A stretch of DNA of 64,000 bases from a virus. Its lineage: Duplodnaviria > Caudoviricetes. The position numbers were made by a program, and so were the translations under genes. Under the pieces are notes generated by a model that saw only the letters and a program-made list of their open reading frames with translations, did not search any database and had not been told where the DNA came from. Positions 30,154-39,717 of the stretch are shown piece after piece (positions within the stretch are counted from its first letter, which is position 1; the number at the start of each line of letters is the position of its first letter). The stretch lies in the IMG/VR virus record IMGVR_UViG_3300008116_000002. The stretch is one strand, 5' to 3'.

Positions 30154-30750
30154 ATGGATCATGATTTAGAATTTGAGAAGCAATATTGGAATACTTGCGT
30201 TAATACTTTTTATGAGGACAAGAAGCAGTATACATATGCTAGTTATATGGGATTAACTAGAATGTGGGATAGTTTTGATGTACAACATAAAACCATTCTG
30301 GATATTGGTGGCGGTCCTAGTAGTATGCTTTTGCGATGCGTAAATTTAAAAAAAGGAAAGATAGTAGATCCCATAGATTATCCGCAATGGACAAAAGATA
30401 GATATGCAATTCATAATGTAGATGTTGAAGTAAACTATGGTGAAAATATAAATGAAAAAGGTTGGGATGAGGTTTGGATATATAATTGTTTACAACATGT
30501 TGAAAGTCCAGAAAAAATATTATTGAATGCGTTGAAGGCGGGAAAATTACTAAGACTTTTTGAATGGATAAACATTCCTCCGCATCCCGGACATCCTCAC
30601 GAGTTGACTTCTTCACTATTTTATAATATACTTACGGATGTTACTAAAACTAAATACTCCAGTGTAGTGAATCTTTGGGACGAGCCTTCGGCTTGTTATG
30701 GTGAAGCTTTTTATGATGTTTTTGAATCGTTAATATATGAGCAAAATTAA
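30154..30750 (+). CDS. class I SAM-dependent methyltransferase
   Basis: ILDIGGGPSS SAM-binding motif; YNCLQHV...PEKIL. Confidence 0.75.
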   Translation: MDHDLEFEKQYWNTCVNTFYEDKKQYTYASYMGLTRMWDSFDVQHKTILDIGGGPSSMLLRCVNLKKGKIVDPIDYPQWTKDRYAIHNVDVEVNYGENINEKGWDEVWIYNCLQHVESPEKILLNALKAGKLLRLFEWINIPPHPGHPHELTSSLFYNILTDVTKTKYSSVVNLWDEPSACYGEAFYDVFESLIYEQN

Positions 30751-31591
30751 AGTATCTGAATTATTTTATTCTATCCAAGGTGAGGGGCGTTATATGGGCG
30801 TCCCTTCAATCTTTCTTAGAACCTTCGGTTGTAATTTTACATGCGATGGATTTGGTGTACCGAAAGGATTTGTAAATCATGCGCGAGACATTGTCGCCAA
30901 AGACGTTCATCTTTATAAGACTTATAAAGAGCTTCCTCTTGTATCCACTGGTTGTGATTCATACGCTAGTTGGGATCCTCGTTTCAAGCATCTTTCTCCC
31001 GTTCTATCTTGTGACAGTGTTGCCGAGGCAATTGTCGAACTACTTCCACACAAAGAGTGGAAAGACGAACATCTAGTTATTACGGGTGGAGAACCCTTAT
31101 TGGGTTGGCAAAAAGCATACCCACTATTGTTAGAGCATCCTAAGATGAAAAATTTGGATGAACTAACTTTTGAGACTAATGGTACTCAGCGTTTGAATCC
31201 TGAGTTAGAAGAATATCTATTTCAGGAATGGACTCGGTTTGGTCGAGACTATGATAAGTTAACTTTTTCAGTATCGCCTAAATTATCGGTATCGGGTGAA
31301 TCAAAAGAAGATGCTTTGAAACCTGAAGTAATTAAACAGTATCAGGATGTAGGATATACTTATCTAAAGTTTGTTGTGGCTTCGGAAGAGGATTTAAATG
31401 AAGCTGAAGAATGGATTGAGGAATATAAAAAGGCAGGCTTTAGTGGCCCAGTATATTTTATGCCGGTAGGTGGAGTCGAATCTGTTTACGTCTTAAATAA
31501 TAAGAAGGTGGCAGAGTTGGCGTTGAAAAGAGGTTATAGGTATTCTGATAGATTGCAGGTGCCTTTATTTAAAAATGAATGGGGCACTTAA
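30737..31591 (+). CDS. queE: 7-carboxy-7-deazaguanine synthase (radical SAM)
   Basis: ELFYSIQGEG...PSIFLRTFGCNFTC...CDS, VITGGEPL, FETNGT, SVSPKL, LKFVV, R(L)QV..F..EWGT. Confidence 0.9.
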   Translation: MSKIKVSELFYSIQGEGRYMGVPSIFLRTFGCNFTCDGFGVPKGFVNHARDIVAKDVHLYKTYKELPLVSTGCDSYASWDPRFKHLSPVLSCDSVAEAIVELLPHKEWKDEHLVITGGEPLLGWQKAYPLLLEHPKMKNLDELTFETNGTQRLNPELEEYLFQEWTRFGRDYDKLTFSVSPKLSVSGESKEDALKPEVIKQYQDVGYTYLKFVVASEEDLNEAEEWIEEYKKAGFSGPVYFMPVGGVESVYVLNNKKVAELALKRGYRYSDRLQVPLFKNEWGT

Positions 31592-31768: not shown

Positions 31769-32194
31769 ATGAGATATTCTTTTCAGGAGTTTGATGAAGA
31801 TATACATTATCTAGTTAAACAAATAGAACAATCTTCAAAAAAATATGATTATGTGGTTGGTATTAAACGAGGTGGTCTAATACCCGCAGTTTGTATCTCT
31901 AATGCATTAAAGGTTCCATTATATAGTTTATCTTGGTCTACTAGAGATTTTCCATATAGTGATACTCATAATTCAGCTCTTGCCCCACTCTCAAAAATAC
32001 TTTTGGTAGATGATCTTTGTGATTCAGGCAAAACCTTAATTGGAATAAAAGAGTTATATTCCTTTTGCGATATTGACACGGCGGTGTTATTATATAATGT
32101 GGATCAAATCCATGTACCAACATACTATGCTAAAGAATTTAGTAGAAAAGAACAAAAAGAATTTATTGATTTCTGGTGGGAAGATTATAAATAA
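31769..32194 (+). CDS. type I phosphoribosyltransferase (Gpt-like)
   Basis: VVGIKRGGLIPA and the PRPP-binding loop ILLVDDLCDSGKTL; C-terminal IDFWWE. Confidence 0.85.
   Translation: MRYSFQEFDEDIHYLVKQIEQSSKKYDYVVGIKRGGLIPAVCISNALKVPLYSLSWSTRDFPYSDTHNSALAPLSKILLVDDLCDSGKTLIGIKELYSFCDIDTAVLLYNVDQIHVPTYYAKEFSRKEQKEFIDFWWEDYK
32186..32193 (+). promoter_or_regulatory. T4-type late promoter upstream of folE
   Basis: Exact TATAAATA overlapping the PRTase stop, about 60 nt before the folE ATG. Confidence 0.7.
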
Positions 32195-32254: not shown

Positions 32255-32932
32255 ATGTCATATAACAAAACAAAAACTGACCCTGAACTTGGTGCAAGGG
32301 TACATGAACATCTTGTAAAGATGGGCGTGGAAACTCCCTCATTTAAAACAACACTAGACCGTAAAGATAAGATTGCAGAAATTGAAAAAAGTTTCAGTCA
32401 TATCATGCAGGTATTGGGTCTTGATTTAGACGACGATAGTCTAGCAGAAACTCCAAAGCGTGTTGCTAAGATGTACGTGAATGAAATTTTCTGGGGACTA
32501 GATTACGACGCATTCCCTAAGTGTACTACTGTTGATAATAAGATGCATTACAATGAAATGGTAGTAGAACGTAATGTCATTGTTCAAAGTAATTGCGAAC
32601 ATCACTTTGTAGTTATTGACGGTCTTGCTACAGTAGCATATGTACCTAATAAAAAAGTATTGGGACTAAGTAAAATTAATCGTATTGTGGAATACTTTAG
32701 TAAGCGTCCACAGATTCAGGAACGTCTAACAGAGCAAATTTTTCATGCACTAAGTTATATTCTTGAAACAGATGATGTCGCAGTAATGATTGATGCTCAG
32801 CATTACTGTGTAAAATCTCGAGGCGTAGAAGATACGGGCAGTTCGACAGTAACAGTTCGTCTCGGTGGTGGCTTTAAAACCGATCCTGCAGCAAGAAATG
32901 AATTTTTAAGTATTGCCCGAATGGGAAAATAA
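32255..32932 (+). CDS. folE: GTP cyclohydrolase I
   Basis: ETPKRVAKMY, SNCEHHF, LGLSKINRIVEYFSKRPQIQERLT, HYCVKSRGV. Confidence 0.96.
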   Translation: MSYNKTKTDPELGARVHEHLVKMGVETPSFKTTLDRKDKIAEIEKSFSHIMQVLGLDLDDDSLAETPKRVAKMYVNEIFWGLDYDAFPKCTTVDNKMHYNEMVVERNVIVQSNCEHHFVVIDGLATVAYVPNKKVLGLSKINRIVEYFSKRPQIQERLTEQIFHALSYILETDDVAVMIDAQHYCVKSRGVEDTGSSTVTVRLGGGFKTDPAARNEFLSIARMGK

Positions 32933-33445: not shown

Positions 33446-34806
33446 ATACGTATCGTAAAAGAATTGCATTTTGCTTAAGTGATCAACATACTATCCCTCA
33501 TGGTGGCCTTGGTCAATTTGCTAAATCCTTCGTTGAGACTTTTACCCCTCTCGGATATAAGATCGATATCATCACAGACAAACCCACAACCAATTTAGAT
33601 TTTAAAAAATATTTAGAATCAGTTGGTGCTAACTTCGAATGGTGTCCTCAACCAATATCATATAGTAATCACACCAAAACATTTATGTTTGAAGATTCCT
33701 ATAACTTTGAGAAGATGGCATCGTTTAGAGATGCTATGATGCATGCTTTAAGTAGAAATCTCTATGACATTATTATCTGCAACACATTAGAATCTTTTCC
33801 CGCAATCTATTCGTTGAACCTACACAAAAATGTACAAATTATTTACTATACTCACAACGAAAGTATGGTATTTCTTGATGACAGAACTTGGAAGAATGAA
33901 TTTACAGAATCCTTTAACGAGGTGTTCAACGCATTGATGCGTGTTAAAGGCATTACTATAGGTACACAGACAGAGAGAAATTTAGTAGAATTAAATCATA
34001 ATGGTATTTTAAATTCAGAGTGTTTACCGATTCCAATGACTGAAACTAGTTTGTTGGAAGAAAATTTTAATATTAGAGAAGGTATTCTTTGGATCGGTCG
34101 TTGGGAGCCAAGAAAGAATCCTGATGAATATATTCGAGTAATTAAAGAAACAGGATTGCCTGCAAAAATTATTACCAATACAAATGGTGCAAAAAAGTTC
34201 GCAGCTGAACTAGATGCAATAGGCGCTAAATATGAGATGAAGGTTGGGGTGTATGGAAAAGAGAAATCTGATTTTCTAAGATCTGCTAGGATAGCATATA
34301 ACCCTGCTATTCGAGAAAGTTTTGGATTGGCATTTTGGGAAACGCTTGGACATATGCCAACCTTTGCTTTAGATGGTATGTCTTGGTTGAAAAATTTTAA
34401 TAGTACTTTTTACTTTGCCGAAAGTAAAAATGTAATGGTCAATAAAATTAAAGATGCCTACGAAAAATATTCTAATCCAAAAGATTGGTATGATACTGGA
34501 GCATTAGAATATGTTAAGAACATTAATAACGAAGGTATCAAAAAATGGATTGCCTGCTTTGATAGTTTTAAACCAACTCAATCAAATTCAGATAAAGCAA
34601 AAATTAATGAAGTGGAAACCACATCATATAAAGAGTTCATTATAAGTCTAGAAAGAAAGGCTTTGGCTATCGACGATGTCAAATCTGTATTGACAAACAA
34701 AGGAAAATTTAATATAATCTATACTGATGAGAACACTTATTTAACCAAAGATAAAGACTTTATACCAACCGAAAGAAGTAACTCCTTAGAAAGTTTATTT
34801 GTATGA
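33442..34806 (+). CDS. GT-B (GT4-like) glycosyltransferase with a C-terminal clamp-binding-like motif
   Basis: PHGGLGQF, ILWIGRWEPRKNP, RESFGLAFWE (E-x7-E); ends SLESLFV. Confidence 0.8.
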   Translation: MNTYRKRIAFCLSDQHTIPHGGLGQFAKSFVETFTPLGYKIDIITDKPTTNLDFKKYLESVGANFEWCPQPISYSNHTKTFMFEDSYNFEKMASFRDAMMHALSRNLYDIIICNTLESFPAIYSLNLHKNVQIIYYTHNESMVFLDDRTWKNEFTESFNEVFNALMRVKGITIGTQTERNLVELNHNGILNSECLPIPMTETSLLEENFNIREGILWIGRWEPRKNPDEYIRVIKETGLPAKIITNTNGAKKFAAELDAIGAKYEMKVGVYGKEKSDFLRSARIAYNPAIRESFGLAFWETLGHMPTFALDGMSWLKNFNSTFYFAESKNVMVNKIKDAYEKYSNPKDWYDTGALEYVKNINNEGIKKWIACFDSFKPTQSNSDKAKINEVETTSYKEFIISLERKALAIDDVKSVLTNKGKFNIIYTDENTYLTKDKDFIPTERSNSLESLFV

Positions 34807-36092
34807 GCAAACAATTAGAATATGTTATATCAGGTCCTGCATACTTAAGACTGGGTGCAGAGCAATGTAATGATCCTGAGACTTTAGACATGATTAATAG
34901 CATGATTCTAAATACTGTTCACAATAAAAATAACCATCAGTTTTCTCTTTTGTATAATGGATTTACAGAAAAGAACTTTGGAGCCAAATTACAAAAGTAC
35001 AGACCAGCAATTAAAAATATTCATGCAGACTCAGGCGGTCTGCAAATTATTACTAGGGGTCTACAAAATACTCCTGAGACAAGAGAAAAGGTTTATACGA
35101 ATCAAGGAACCTATGCAGACATAGGTATGGCATTTGACGAAATTCCTGTTAAGGCAACAACTTCATCTGGCACTAGTTCTAAGATTGATACTAAGCGTCG
35201 CTATGTAGATATAGAAAATTTTGATGCTTATGCAAAGCAAACAGGTAAGAATGTAAAAGATCAGATTGAAAAATTTGATGCTATGGGAAGTAAATGCCGA
35301 CCATTTGTTATTGTACAAGGATCGGGTCATGATACCTATGCTAGATGGTCTGAGTTATTATTAAAAGAAATACCACAAAATTTACACAACAGAATAGGCG
35401 GAGTTGCTATGGGATCCGCTGCTTTAGGCATGGGTCCTTTGGAAGATGTTAAACGAGCATTTTATGCAACGACTGTTCCTTTTGATAAACCTTTTCATCT
35501 ACACGTTCTTGGTGTAGGTGCATTAAAACGAATCCTTCCTTATCTATTGTTTAGTCAAACTGGTTTATATGAAGGCATAGATATTTCATATGACTCAACT
35601 ACACATTCTATGTCGCTGGACAATGGATTGTTTTATTTCTCATTTAGCAAAAAGAATGCGCCAGGTGATTATGGCGGATCATCTGTAAAAATGGGAAGGG
35701 CATATTCTAATATTTACAGAACAGTATCTGAAGAAATTAATTCTGTATGTGGTACATCATATGACCCCGAGGAGTATCACAAGTTAATGAATATTGCTGT
35801 TGGACAATATTTAGAAGAAGGCGGAAAGTTTATTGACATTATGAGAGCAAGATTGGGGTTTATTCTAACCAATGTACATAATTTTACATATGACGTTTCT
35901 AATCTAATGAATTCTAAAGAAGCATTTTTAAAATTCTGCAGAGAAAAGAATTGTGAAAACGAATATGCCACATTATTTGACGTAAAAACAATTGATGACT
36001 TCAATCATTGGGAATCTCAGGTAGGTAAATTTATGGATTCAGAGCCAGTGAATATTGTAGCACCATCTTCACTTGAGGAGTTATTTGCATGA
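34803..36092 (+). CDS. dpdA: TGT-fold 7-deazaguanine DNA transglycosylase (DpdA-like)
   Basis: HADSGGLQ (TGT DSGGFQ motif), MAFDEIP, FVIVQG, LHVLGVG, SYDSTTHS; embedded among folE/queD/queE; ends SLEELFA. Confidence 0.75.
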   Translation: MSKQLEYVISGPAYLRLGAEQCNDPETLDMINSMILNTVHNKNNHQFSLLYNGFTEKNFGAKLQKYRPAIKNIHADSGGLQIITRGLQNTPETREKVYTNQGTYADIGMAFDEIPVKATTSSGTSSKIDTKRRYVDIENFDAYAKQTGKNVKDQIEKFDAMGSKCRPFVIVQGSGHDTYARWSELLLKEIPQNLHNRIGGVAMGSAALGMGPLEDVKRAFYATTVPFDKPFHLHVLGVGALKRILPYLLFSQTGLYEGIDISYDSTTHSMSLDNGLFYFSFSKKNAPGDYGGSSVKMGRAYSNIYRTVSEEINSVCGTSYDPEEYHKLMNIAVGQYLEEGGKFIDIMRARLGFILTNVHNFTYDVSNLMNSKEAFLKFCREKNCENEYATLFDVKTIDDFNHWESQVGKFMDSEPVNIVAPSSLEELFA

Positions 36093-36484
36093 TTATTAGG
36101 CAAGACGTTAGACCCAATAAAATGATCTGGGTTACCTTTCGCAAAGAAGGTATTCATTGTTATCCCGCAGCAGCCACAGATCCTAATCTAGCAACAGGAG
36201 ACAAATATGATGTTTCGTTCCTTGCCAATCCTCATCGGCATATTTTTCATTTCAGGGTGTGGATCTCCATCACTCACAATGACCGTGATATCGAGTTCAT
36301 CCAATTCAAACGGTGGTTGGAATCATTGTATTCAGGGGAAGAAGATTGTTTGCGATTGGACTACAAATCATGCGAGATGATGTCAGATGAATTATATGAA
36401 AGAATAACACAAAGATATCCTAATAGAGAAGTTTGGATTGAAGTATCCGAAGATGGTGAGAATGGTTCTTTTATTAAATACTGA
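36089..36484 (+). CDS. QueD-paralog T-fold protein, DpdL-like (putative CDG decarboxylase)
   Basis: FLANPHRHIF = LxxxHRHxF in place of the QueD CxxxHGH; SCEMM..ELY...EVSEDGENG resembles the QueD C-terminus. Confidence 0.55.
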   Translation: MIIRQDVRPNKMIWVTFRKEGIHCYPAAATDPNLATGDKYDVSFLANPHRHIFHFRVWISITHNDRDIEFIQFKRWLESLYSGEEDCLRLDYKSCEMMSDELYERITQRYPNREVWIEVSEDGENGSFIKY

Positions 36485-36491
36485 GGTTTAA

Positions 36492-37670
36492 ATGAATAAA
36501 TTATATTACATGGGCTTAGAGCCTTACGAAGGTAGATATACTCTTCAGCTTCAACAATGGAATGAAGAAGTATTTAAACGTCGAGGCATTAATTATGAAA
36601 TTATTCATGGTGATACCTTAGATAATTCTAAAGCAATTGTCACGGGACAAGTATTAGATGCACATGGAAGAAGCTATTATTCTTTGACGCAGATGGCAAA
36701 GCTTGTTCAAAAGATGAAAGCGGGCGAAATAAGATATGATGATGTAATTTTCTTTGAGGATATGTTTACCCCCGGTATAGAAGCTCTTCCATATATTATG
36801 GATCAGTGTGGCTGGGAATATCAACCAAGAGTTTTTGTTCGTTGTCTAGCACAGACTATTGATCCTGATGACTTTCTTCATGTCTGGGATATGCAGGAGT
36901 GGATGGCACATTATGAGAAGATGGTAAATGTATGGGTAAACGGAGTTCTTGCTTCTAATGAAGAAATGGTAGCCCATATGAAAATTGCAGGTTGGAATGT
37001 TCCTATGTATAATATTTCTGGTCTTGCTTTTAGTAAAGATGAAGTTAGAAGTAGAGTTAAGGAAATTAAACCTTTTCAGGAAAGAAAAAATCGAGTTGTC
37101 TTTGCTGCAAGATTCGATCAAGAAAAACAACCTGATTTCTTTATGGATATTGTAGAACATTATGGGCCTAATTCTGATATAGAATTTGCAGTATTGTCAG
37201 GTGGCCCATTACGCAGCAATGATGAAAAATATTTAGAAAGAGCAAAGCAACTTCAGGCTACTAATTCTAATTTTAAAATTTATGAAAATTTGCAAAAGAA
37301 TGAATATTATGAAATTCTTGCAGATTCGAAAGTTCTATTTAATTGCGCACTACAGGATTGGGTAAGTAATACTGCATCAGAAGCAGACGCTCTAGGAACA
37401 AATTGTTTATTTCCTGCGTATAGATCATTCCCTGAGACTTTTGCTAATGATGCAGAATGCCTTTATATCCCTTGGTCAAAAGAAGACGCTACAAATAAAC
37501 TTGAATGTTTATTAGAATTTCCTAGAAGCAATATAGGTAAACTAGCAGATTGGACTTCAGGAACTATTGATAGATGTTTAGATATTATTCTTTCAAATCC
37601 TGCAGCAAATGAGTATAATAGAAATGTTAAAACATATCGAAACTTTTTAGCACAAAGTAAATATGAATAA
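36492..37670 (+). CDS. GT-B glycosyltransferase
   Basis: VVFAARFDQEKQPDFF, LQKNEYYEIL, ALQDWVSNTASEADALG. Confidence 0.75.
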   Translation: MNKLYYMGLEPYEGRYTLQLQQWNEEVFKRRGINYEIIHGDTLDNSKAIVTGQVLDAHGRSYYSLTQMAKLVQKMKAGEIRYDDVIFFEDMFTPGIEALPYIMDQCGWEYQPRVFVRCLAQTIDPDDFLHVWDMQEWMAHYEKMVNVWVNGVLASNEEMVAHMKIAGWNVPMYNISGLAFSKDEVRSRVKEIKPFQERKNRVVFAARFDQEKQPDFFMDIVEHYGPNSDIEFAVLSGGPLRSNDEKYLERAKQLQATNSNFKIYENLQKNEYYEILADSKVLFNCALQDWVSNTASEADALGTNCLFPAYRSFPETFANDAECLYIPWSKEDATNKLECLLEFPRSNIGKLADWTSGTIDRCLDIILSNPAANEYNRNVKTYRNFLAQSKYE

Positions 37671-38652
37671 TACTGTTATTGTAACGGGTGCCGCCGGTTA
37701 TATCGGTGGTACCATATGCGCTAAGCTCAAAGAAAAGGGGTATTCTGTTGTAGGTATAGATAGAAGAGAATTGCCCTCTCATCTATATCAATACATAGAC
37801 CATTTCCTTAAGGTAGATTTTACACATGAGTTTTCTTTAAGGCGTATTGACAGAAAACCGTTGGCGGTTATTCATTGCGCCGGAACAAGTTTAGTTGGTC
37901 CTAGTATTGAAAATCCAAGTGGTTATTATGACAATAATGTAGTTAAAACTTTAAAGTATATAGATTACATAAGATCTCATTCTCCATATACTAAATTTAT
38001 TTTTAGTAGTAGTGCATCTGTATATGGTAATCCGATGAGTTCAAAACCAATTACTGAAAATTTTGACACTAACCCGATCTCGCCATACGGTCAGTCTAAA
38101 TTGATGACTGAGATGATGCTAAAATCTTTTAAAAGTGCCTATGATTTAAAATATGTTTCATTCAGATATTTTAATGCGTGCGGTGCCTTAAGCGATGGCG
38201 CACATGGTCAGGATCCCGATGCAACGCATATATTTGCCAGACTCTTTGAATCAATAAAAAAAGAAACACAATTCTTTTTAAATGGCAAAGATTATGTAAC
38301 AAAGGATGGAACCTGCATACGAGATTATGTCCATGTAGAGGATATAGCCAATGCACACATAATAGCTATTGAAAAAAATATCGAAGGGATATATAATATA
38401 GGATCAGATACAGGTACGTCTAATCTAGAAATTATTAAACAGGTAGGTAAATTTTTCGGGAAACCTCTATCAATAGAGATTAAAGAACAAAGAATGGGGG
38501 ATCCCGCAATTTTAGTTGCAAGTGCTAAAAAGTTATCTGATGAAACAGGCTGGAAAGCAGAACATAGTATCAAAAAAATTATTAAAGATTTAAATGATTG
38601 GTATGACTCTGAAAACTATGCCAAGAGGACTAAGGCAATCATCCCTCTATAA
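37663..38652 (+). CDS. galE: UDP-glucose 4-epimerase
   Basis: VTGAAGYIGG, FSSSASVYG, YGQSK (YxxxK), FRYFNACG, DGTCIRDYVHVEDIA. Confidence 0.9.
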   Translation: MNNTVIVTGAAGYIGGTICAKLKEKGYSVVGIDRRELPSHLYQYIDHFLKVDFTHEFSLRRIDRKPLAVIHCAGTSLVGPSIENPSGYYDNNVVKTLKYIDYIRSHSPYTKFIFSSSASVYGNPMSSKPITENFDTNPISPYGQSKLMTEMMLKSFKSAYDLKYVSFRYFNACGALSDGAHGQDPDATHIFARLFESIKKETQFFLNGKDYVTKDGTCIRDYVHVEDIANAHIIAIEKNIEGIYNIGSDTGTSNLEIIKQVGKFFGKPLSIEIKEQRMGDPAILVASAKKLSDETGWKAEHSIKKIIKDLNDWYDSENYAKRTKAIIPL

Positions 38653-38667
38653 AGACTCTGCTTGCTG
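38624..38667 (+). ncRNA. candidate preQ1-class-I-like riboswitch aptamer (variant) upstream of queD
   Basis: P1 AGAGG(38624-28)/CCTCT(38644-48); loop ends GCAATCATC; 3' tail ATAAAGAC; loop AGGCA/GGCAA can pair with TGCTT/TTGCT downstream; SD AGGAG at 38682-86. Confidence 0.5.
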
Positions 38668-38693
38668 TCAAACTTGCTCATAGGAGACTAGAG

Positions 38694-39221
38694 ATGGCAA
38701 AATTTTATTCAACAAAAACTTATGGTAATGACAGAGGATTGTCATGTTGTTTCAGACAATGGCGTGCTACACATAGTCATTGTTCAACATTGCATGGTTA
38801 CTCAATTGGTATTAAACTCATATTTGAATGCGATACACTAGATGATAAAAATTGGTGTATGGACTTTGGTGGTCTTAAAGAATTCAAAGCATGGGCAGAT
38901 CATATGTTCGATCACACATTAGTTGTTGCAGAAGACGACCCGCTGTTAGATCGTTTTAAAGAAATGAGCGGCTGGAGTTCTAATCCAGAGCATGACGGCA
39001 ATCCTGAGCGAGTACAAGTAGAACCATATCGCAGATCGGGTGTTTGTGATCTACGTATTGTACCTTCTGTAGGATGTGAAATGTTTGCTAAACTATGCTA
39101 TGACAAAATGGCAGAACTGTTGGCATCAGGTAGTATGCGCTATCCAATCAATCCAAGCGTAAGAGTAAAATCTGTAGAAGTATTTGAACATGCAGGTAAC
39201 TCTGCTACATATGAAGGATAA
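38694..39221 (+). CDS. queD: 6-carboxy-5,6,7,8-tetrahydropterin synthase
   Basis: HSHCSTLHGY, WCMDFGGLK...FDHTL, GCEMFAK, SVEVFEHAGNSA. Confidence 0.9.
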   Translation: MAKFYSTKTYGNDRGLSCCFRQWRATHSHCSTLHGYSIGIKLIFECDTLDDKNWCMDFGGLKEFKAWADHMFDHTLVVAEDDPLLDRFKEMSGWSSNPEHDGNPERVQVEPYRRSGVCDLRIVPSVGCEMFAKLCYDKMAELLASGSMRYPINPSVRVKSVEVFEHAGNSATYEG

Positions 39222-39717
39222 AACAAATATAGCAAAAGGTGTCAATAGTAAGGATGAGAAGATAGGTGATTTGACTGTAGCATTTATTAATCAAAGCACT
39301 TCTGAATATCCCGTTACTGTTGGCACCGCAAAGTTTGAACCTGTTCCCGTAACTAAACAAAAAGATTTAATGTTGAATGTAGCTAGACTACATGCACAAC
39401 AAGAGTATGATAGAATAATGGAATTAGTTGCTGTGCTTCAAAAGCAAGCTAAGCAAATTATGAAGCGGCTGGAGTTTACAGATAAAGTCCATGCTGCAGA
39501 ATATAAGTTTCAAATTTATCATGGACAATGTTATTGGTTAGCCTTTGATCTTAATATTAAAAAATATATTTTACACCACTTAGGACCAAATGATTGGTCT
39601 ACTGGCACACCCGATAATTTACAATACGTTACTCGTGTCAAATGGTTAGGTGATCATACCTGGTTAGAAGTCGATGAACATGGAAATACAATAAATGAAA
39701 ATAGCGCTAGTTACTGA
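39211..39717 (+). CDS. DUF2452-like protein
   Basis: ARLHAQQEYDRIMELVAVLQKQA...AEYKFQIYHGQCYWL...LGPNDW; ATG at 39211 preferred to the track start at 39184. Confidence 0.55.
   Translation: MKDKTNIAKGVNSKDEKIGDLTVAFINQSTSEYPVTVGTAKFEPVPVTKQKDLMLNVARLHAQQEYDRIMELVAVLQKQAKQIMKRLEFTDKVHAAEYKFQIYHGQCYWLAFDLNIKKYILHHLGPNDWSTGTPDNLQYVTRVKWLGDHTWLEVDEHGNTINENSASY

Follow-up and report, generated by a model that had tools for sequence, protein, structure and literature searches.

Class I riboswitches for 7-aminomethyl-7-deazaguanine (preQ1-I; RF00522; types I to III, e.g., B. subtilis queC, T. tengcongensis, and E. coli yhhQ) are small H-type pseudoknots in which a C directly 5′ of the 3′ strand of stem P1 is preceded by U (type I) or A (types II and III), the P1 5′ strand is followed at once by a conserved, ligand-contacting U (UU in types I and III), an A-rich loop L3, whose last A reads the ligand, runs from P1 directly into stem P2, and the P2 3′ strand holds the Shine-Dalgarno (SD) sequence or precedes a terminator, ligand binding being repressive; these defining features are taken from PMC11625349 and PMC10622847. 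All preQ1 classes in PMC11625349 occlude the SD sequence or act on transcription. Here, we report a conserved, covarying, queD-specific RNA pseudoknot that is absent from Rfam and for which no publication was found, located at the galE-queD junction of a freshwater T4-like phage (positions 38624-38666 of the window, i.e., the whole stretch of 64,000 nucleotides [nt] of IMG/VR record IMGVR_UViG_3300008116_000002 that was analyzed). The motif and preQ1-I are related in architecture, but the motif is not a recognizable member of that family, and we assign a probability of about 0.6 to its being a candidate cis-acting translational riboswitch of a new, phage-specific class.

In the window, the element is a 43-nt H-type pseudoknot, with P1 (AGAGG/CCUCU) enclosing a 15-nt loop and P2 (GGCAA/UUGCU) joining that loop to downstream sequence; L3 totals 13 nt, an A-rich 8-mer followed by an invariant UCUGC (Table 1). 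An earlier sequence-only reading had these letters right (P1, the 15-nt loop, C38643, the SD at 38682-86, and the queD ATG at 38694) and called the element a preQ1-I-like riboswitch. Searching IMG/VR with the QueD protein gave 80 loci (78-95% identity) whose leaders contain the same element, and the motif is kept upstream of queD in >120 distinct sequences from uncultured phage contigs. Their consensus comprises a 5-bp P1, an L1 starting N-C-U, a loop segment pairing just 3′ of the invariant UCUGC, an L2 of UCA(U/A/C)C, and exactly 8 A-rich nt between P1 and UCUGC, with P2 spanning 4-7 bp across the family. P1 occurs as AGAGG/CCUCU, UGCGG/CCGCA, AGUGG/CCACU, AGCGG/CCGCU, AGUCG/CGACU, and AUCGG/CCGAU, and P2, besides the window pair, as GGCAU/AUGUC, GGCG/CGCC, GACGC/GCGUG(U)C, GACA/UGUC, GACUU/AAGUC, and GGUG/CACC.

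These stems covary. In a MAFFT alignment of 49 distinct sequences (A1), P1 was 99.6% paired and P2 82.6% paired, with double changes at 11/12 pairs; none of 500 shuffles matched the observed values, and slid controls were 34-51% paired. Model-aligning 97 distinct sequences (A2; the model holds P1 only) gave 98.8% for P1 and 78.2% for P2, with 12/14 pairs double-changed, again 0/500 matching shuffles, and slid controls 25-46% paired. Double (compensatory) changes fell on 4 of the 5 P1 pairs and on all 7 aligned P2 columns. With the window excluded, a covariance model of 53 relatives recovered 38622-38670 at 49.6 bits (E about 1e-14), and its runner-up match in the 64 kb scored 9.4 bits. The leave-window-out score and the covariation together establish that the observation is real; alignment of queD leaders, which the sequence-only reading had proposed as a check, bore out both stems.

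Conservation also extends to unpaired bases. The specificity C that had been noted directly 5′ of the P1 3′ strand is invariant among the relatives, and A stands at positions 3, 5, and 7 of the A-rich L3 segment in 54/54 QueD-retrieved leaders, a set free of pattern-collection bias (the tally in 126 leaders cannot test these As, since the finder required them). C38640-G38660 and A38641-U38659 may extend P2 beyond a U-C mismatch. The four bases concerned are almost invariant, the lone variant (L074; UCGAC with UCCGC) replacing A-U with G-C, a single compensatory event that is suggestive only.

The window galE runs into the aptamer, so that its last nine codons and its stop (UAA, 38650-52, inside L3) are encoded by the aptamer hairpin and tail. 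It had therefore been allowed that P1 is a chance product of galE codons, and the window does have coding sequence in P1, the loop, and part of L3. We regard the probability of a chance hairpin as negligible: the upstream frame ends inside the motif in only 5/126 relatives, most of which carry it in noncoding leader DNA behind a promoter; galE overlaps it in two different reading frames among relatives; and the covariance model recovered the window copy unseen. The stop-in-L3 layout recurs in three diverged relatives, L090, L109, and L150, whose GalE identity is only 58-63%. As two reading frames are used over one motif, it is the RNA that sets the protein tail, and not the tail that sets the RNA.

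Among 124 relatives, 34 have a sigma-70-like promoter ahead of P1, in 27 of them with a −10 box that ends 7-9 nt before P1, and 44 have a T4-late-like TAAATA within 35 nt of P1; from this placement, P1 usually starts the mRNA. No sigma-70-like or T4-late-like site was found within 60 nt of the window P1. The closest good match, a near-consensus sigma-70-type promoter (TTGAAA, 17 nt, TATAAT; 11/12), lies inside galE at 38369-38397, 226 nt upstream of P1, and could serve queD as an internal promoter. One metatranscriptome fragment spans 38568-38708, and the leader of a relative also occurs in RNA contigs, which weakly suggests transcription across the galE-queD junction; this coverage is sparse, gives no transcript start, and could include DNA carry-over.

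The P2 3′ strand has a second possible partner. In the minimum free energy (MFE) fold of the window leader, it lies entirely within a helix that sequesters the queD start codon (Table 1). The same GGCAA stands in the hairpin loop and, after the AU of that start codon, at the start site, so that both compete for one strand. Duplex energies between the 13 nt after UCUGC and the region from the SD to AUG+8 were calculated for 126 distinct leaders: in 104 leaders the best duplex covers the AUG, and in 23 the SD (one leader both); it starts at position 1-2 after UCUGC in 106 and averages −8.9 kcal/mol, compared with −7.3 kcal/mol for partners permuted among leaders and −4.5 kcal/mol for shuffled strands. 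An equivalent start-region helix is present in 126/126 relatives, and RNAalifold on 24 leaders of platform type a (alignment A3) returned P1 plus the sequestering helix. At least four distinct platform sequences follow the same logic, namely type a (UGUCAUC/GAUGGCA), type b (GCCAUUG/CAAUGGC), and type d (AGUCAUC/GAUGACU), all targeting the AUG, and type c (CCUAUG/CAUAGG), targeting the SD; in type d, the second codon differs and the pairing strand is altered to match. P2 and the sequestering helix are mutually exclusive in every lineage seen.

Since the two folds cannot coexist, a ligand that stabilizes the pseudoknot should free the start site. In the proposed mechanism, the sequestering helix would form without ligand and leave queD untranslated, and a ligand-stabilized pseudoknot would draw the P2 3′ strand off and expose the AUG or SD, turning translation on. 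The switch direction is thus probably ON as modeled, and we infer that a small molecule is sensed. The negative feedback on QueD implied by the sequence-only reading does not agree with this arrangement, the platform being built so that the pseudoknot exposes the AUG or SD instead of hiding the SD. At 38650-52, a terminating galE ribosome would cover UCUGC and the P2/sequestering strand, and galE translation would then open the queD start irrespective of ligand; in the window, galE translation is therefore likely to open the sequestering helix, coupling the two genes.

The same folds could operate with no ligand at all, as a 5′-end stabilizer, as a thermosensor or Mg sensor, or as a device fixing queD translation at a low level. 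P1 lies at the predicted mRNA 5′ end in many relatives, where hairpins can protect against decay, and two competing folds can serve as a thermometer. Neither function, however, needs about 15 invariant unpaired bases or a precise competition between pseudoknot and start-site helix in four independently built platforms, and a ligand-free stabilizer or thermometer is the less likely account, with only a small chance of being correct.

In type a platforms, a conserved CAAACUU(G/A)CU element sits between the P2 3′ strand and the SD. Its UUGCU form accompanies a GCA second codon and its UCGCU form mostly GCG, with exceptions, and no consistent pairing partner for it was found by eye or with RNAalifold. 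Two pseudoknot registers had been envisaged for the window. The first (GGCAA 38634-38/UUGCU 38662-66) is the one backed by the comparative data; the second was rejected, its UUGCU (38674-78) being part of the conserved CAAACUUGCU element present in this one platform type only.

By covariance model, each related phage record carries one copy of the motif, always before queD. A degenerate motif pattern matched at least 120 stretches in IMG/VR; of 80 returned, 77 were true by the model (37-68 bits), and at least 73 of the 80 precede a gene for a QueD homologue, whose identity to the window QueD is in some cases only about 30-40%, the rest being crude open reading frame (ORF)-finder artifacts or false pattern matches. 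The pattern scan of bacterial and archaeal genomes (596 Gb) served as a negative control: among the 80 matches listed, which are part of the total and do not imply absence from bacteria, one was real, and the other five reported by the model scored ≤20.3 bits. That sole true instance, L252, lies on a 5.5-kb contig (CAIJZG010000002.1) of a Bacteroidetes metagenome-assembled genome (MAG); it is probably a phage contig binned into the MAG and possibly a hint at the host. In four cultured phages with QueD homologues (Flavobacterium phage immuto, Chryseobacterium phage MA9V-3, Stenotrophomonas phage Mendera, and Burkholderia phage BCSR5), the motif was not found, the best score being 11 bits and not upstream of queD. 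A blastn search of GenBank phages found no close DNA relative of the galE-queD region, blastn of two leaders gave chance matches in coding regions only, and literature searches yielded no published queD, phage, or 7-deazaguanine riboswitch like this motif.

A few loci depart from the common arrangement. L013 (and L014) carries a second copy (L013:1345-1396; 51.5 bits) behind a late-promoter-like box, TATAAATA, and before a gene for a 312-amino-acid (aa) radical S-adenosylmethionine (SAM) protein (CxxxCxxC) that is not QueE; the close relatives L124 and L136 have the order phosphoribosyltransferase-motif-queD without the two-gene insert seen in L013, where the leader seems to have been duplicated along with the inserted cassette. 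L100:6-54 is a degenerate extra copy (23 bits; a P1 mismatch and UUCGC for UCUGC) 1 kb upstream of an intact one. In G004 (L052), 123436-124012 has the order folE-motif-queD, folE ending about 40 nt upstream of the motif; in other relatives, folE is tens of kilobases away.

The resemblance to preQ1-I raises the alternative that the motif is a diverged member that binds preQ1 or 7-cyano-7-deazaguanine (preQ0) and represses queD as in bacteria. Shared features are the small H-type topology, a 5-bp P1 closed by G-C, the invariant C (present in all 54 QueD-retrieved leaders; the base before it is U in 92, A in 17, and C in 17 of the 126 leaders), an A-rich stretch after P1, and a position before a gene of the 7-deazaguanine (queuosine) pathway, with translational control. 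Homology searches nevertheless separate the two. The window had no match to any Rfam 15 family at gathering thresholds; searching all families at E ≤ 10 over the 201 nt of 38560-38760 and over 16 related loci gave only chance-level microRNA, small nucleolar RNA, and long noncoding RNA models. The search with the Rfam preQ1-I model that had been suggested for this site came back empty, as RF00522 (gathering score, 39 bits) did not match 38560-38760 at E ≤ 10, and in five related records at the same threshold its best score was 17 bits, with none at a queD leader. In structure, too, the phage motif differs from preQ1-I: the first L1 base is A in 52, C in 34, and U in 40 of the 126 leaders and is followed by invariant C and U; the 8-nt A-rich segment of the 13-nt L3 is set apart from P2 by the invariant UCUGC; P2 contains no SD, which lies 16 nt 3′ of the P2 3′ strand; and the window leader has no terminator. 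Formation of the phage pseudoknot should, by the modeled platform, free the start site (ON), unlike preQ1 switches, and the phages carrying it have no QueC and hence make neither preQ0 nor preQ1. Membership of preQ1-I is accordingly very unlikely. What stands of the earlier preQ1-I-like assignment is a conserved, covarying, queD-specific H-type pseudoknot of similar topology; membership of RF00522 is not supported.

The window carries a glycosyltransferase, GalE, and QueD in addition to QueE-like, FolE, DpdA-like, and DpdL-like genes and a small phosphoribosyltransferase gene (Table 1). LxxxHRHxF is the signature of DpdL, the proposed decarboxylase of 7-carboxy-7-deazaguanine (CDG) (PMC10516641). 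The LANPHRHIF of the 131-aa ORF beside the DpdA-like gene fits it, a match suggestive of 7-deazaguanine (dDG) or a derivative in the phage DNA. The small phosphoribosyltransferase gene (31769-32194; L013:776-1324) recurs beside queD, queE, or folE in 17-20 related loci, and its product may act on a deazapurine base. No QueC is encoded in the window, and no full-length QueC was found in 16 long related records, three of them 98-100% complete and 13 of them with a QueE-like gene. The pathway very likely ends at CDG or 7-deazaguanine and not at preQ0 or preQ1, and with no QueC, preQ1 is an unlikely ligand. A shifted specificity, as the sequence-only reading had supposed, is plausible on the same ground. 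Our guess is a ligand presenting a guanine-like face to the invariant C, such as the QueD substrate 7,8-dihydroneopterin triphosphate (H2NTP) or another pterin, guanine released by DpdA, or CDG/7-deazaguanine. Given the ON logic, H2NTP or another pterin and DpdA-released guanine would be the most sensible; a pterin would act feed-forward at the branch from folate metabolism, and a pathway product would fit if the switch logic differs from ON.

T4-like phages use protein-bound leader structures, including the gene 32 pseudoknot and the RegA operators. The motif could similarly be an operator at which a trans-acting factor, such as a protein (QueD, a RegA-like repressor, or some other product of the phage), stabilizes one of the two folds and so times queD translation in the course of infection with no small molecule, and covariation with invariant loop bases suits a protein site equally. 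Yet the element is very small, and its invariant bases cluster at the P1/P2 junction, as they do in pseudoknot aptamers; it is retained before QueD proteins only about 30-40% identical; and neighboring genes differ among the phages, with no obvious co-conserved partner gene. We consider an operator of this kind improbable, if not greatly so.

Several points weigh against a riboswitch. The ON logic, deduced from secondary structure only, would be unusual for a biosynthetic gene. The protein-bound leaders of T4-like phages would yield the same covariation, and ribosomes translating galE would unfold the window element, so that ligand control may be weak there. The larger motif set was gathered by pattern search, to which some of the L3 invariance is partly due. 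The single-sequence fold of 38610-38710 (101 nt) was no more stable than shuffles (z = 0.61); since it is unremarkable, support rests on comparison and not on thermodynamics. Weighing these, we keep the riboswitch as the preferred reading. Its fuller form, a new phage riboswitch class (L252 aside) that would be the first for a DNA-hypermodification pathway and would turn QueD on through a non-preQ1, guanine-faced metabolite, we hold to be evenly balanced between right and wrong.

Table 1. Positions of the pseudoknot, its start-site helix, and associated genes in the window
Feature	Position	Strand	Remarks
QueE-like radical SAM gene	30737-31591		
Small phosphoribosyltransferase gene	31769-32194		
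FolE gene	32255-32932		
DpdA-like gene	34803-36092		429-aa protein; weak Tgt similarity
DpdL-like gene	36089-36484		131-aa protein containing LANPHRHIF; adjoins DpdA-like gene
galE-like epimerase gene	37663..38652	+	Pfam PF01370, E 2.5e-53; ORF table
P1 5′ strand, AGAGG	38624..38628	+	Within last galE codons; pairs with 38644-48
L1, ACUAA	38629..38633	+	First base variable in family; C38630 and U38631 invariant (alignments A1 and A4)
P2 5′ strand, GGCAA	38634..38638	+	In hairpin loop; pairs with 38662-66
L2, UCAUC	38639..38643	+	Invariant columns; C38643 invariant, directly 5′ of P1 3′ strand
P1 3′ strand, CCUCU	38644..38648	+	Pair covariation
A-rich first part of L3, AUAAAGAC	38649..38656	+	Holds galE stop UAA 38650-52
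UCUGC block, 3′ end of L3	38657..38661	+	Invariant except one UCCGC
P2 3′ strand, UUGCU	38662..38666	+	Pair covariation
Start-codon-sequestering helix, 5′ strand, UUGCUGUC	38662..38669	+	MFE fold, duplex −9.7 kcal/mol; covers whole P2 3′ strand
Conserved element of type a platform, AAACUUGCUC	38670..38679	+	Alignment A3; other platform types without it
SD of queD, AGGAG	38682..38686	+	Sequence; kept in relatives
Sequestering helix, 3′ strand, GAUGGCAA	38693..38700	+	Includes queD AUG 38694-96
queD-like gene (regulated gene)	38694..39221	+	PTPS/QueD family, 175 aa; Pfam PF01242, E 1.6e-16; phrog_2389, E 8.5e-36

The window QueD-like protein (38694-39221) falls below the cutoff of TIGR03367. It has CSTLHGY in place of the canonical QueD CxxxHGH, with Tyr replacing the second zinc histidine, a variant common to the QueD of the close relative in L013. 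The end of queD is overlapped by a DUF2452 (PF10504) ORF (39184-39717), with possible translational coupling between the two; among about 160 related loci, only 2 have a DUF2452 homologue downstream of queD.

Phages rarely have riboswitches, and those known belong to bacterial classes. The queD motif, abundant among uncultured T4-like and jumbo phages of fresh water, sits where a GTP-derived pterin commits to 7-deazaguanine DNA modification, an anti-restriction system. Were a ligand found, the motif would reveal how DNA hypermodification is timed or dosed by a phage, would place a new pseudoknot aptamer with the opposite output beside preQ1-I, and would offer a compact ON switch of about 75 nt usable as a tool.

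Beyond preQ1-I, four sets of known systems invite comparison. The add adenine riboswitch of Vibrio vulnificus is a translational ON riboswitch with a three-way junction aptamer; in add-like ON riboswitches, as proposed here, a ligand-stabilized aptamer removes a strand from the helix that hides the SD or AUG, but the phage aptamer is a pseudoknot, and its sequestered partner imitates the loop of the aptamer, both having GGCAA. SAM-II/SAM-V, guanidine-III, and fluoride riboswitches are similar to the phage motif in size and topology, and SAM-V likewise occurs in aquatic metagenomes; the motif matches none of their Rfam models and has other conserved bases and another gene association. The leader pseudoknot of T4 gene 32 is an autoregulatory site that nucleates binding of the gene's own product. 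Like the queD motif, it is H-type, lies at the 5′ end of a T4-like phage mRNA, and controls translation, whereas the queD motif has no known protein partner and has a competing start-codon helix built in. Lastly, glutamine (glnA) riboswitches occur in marine phages and are a precedent for aquatic T4-like phages with riboswitches for their own genes (PMC9004378), but glnA is a bacterial class borrowed by phages, whereas the queD motif is seen in viral contigs plus L252 only.

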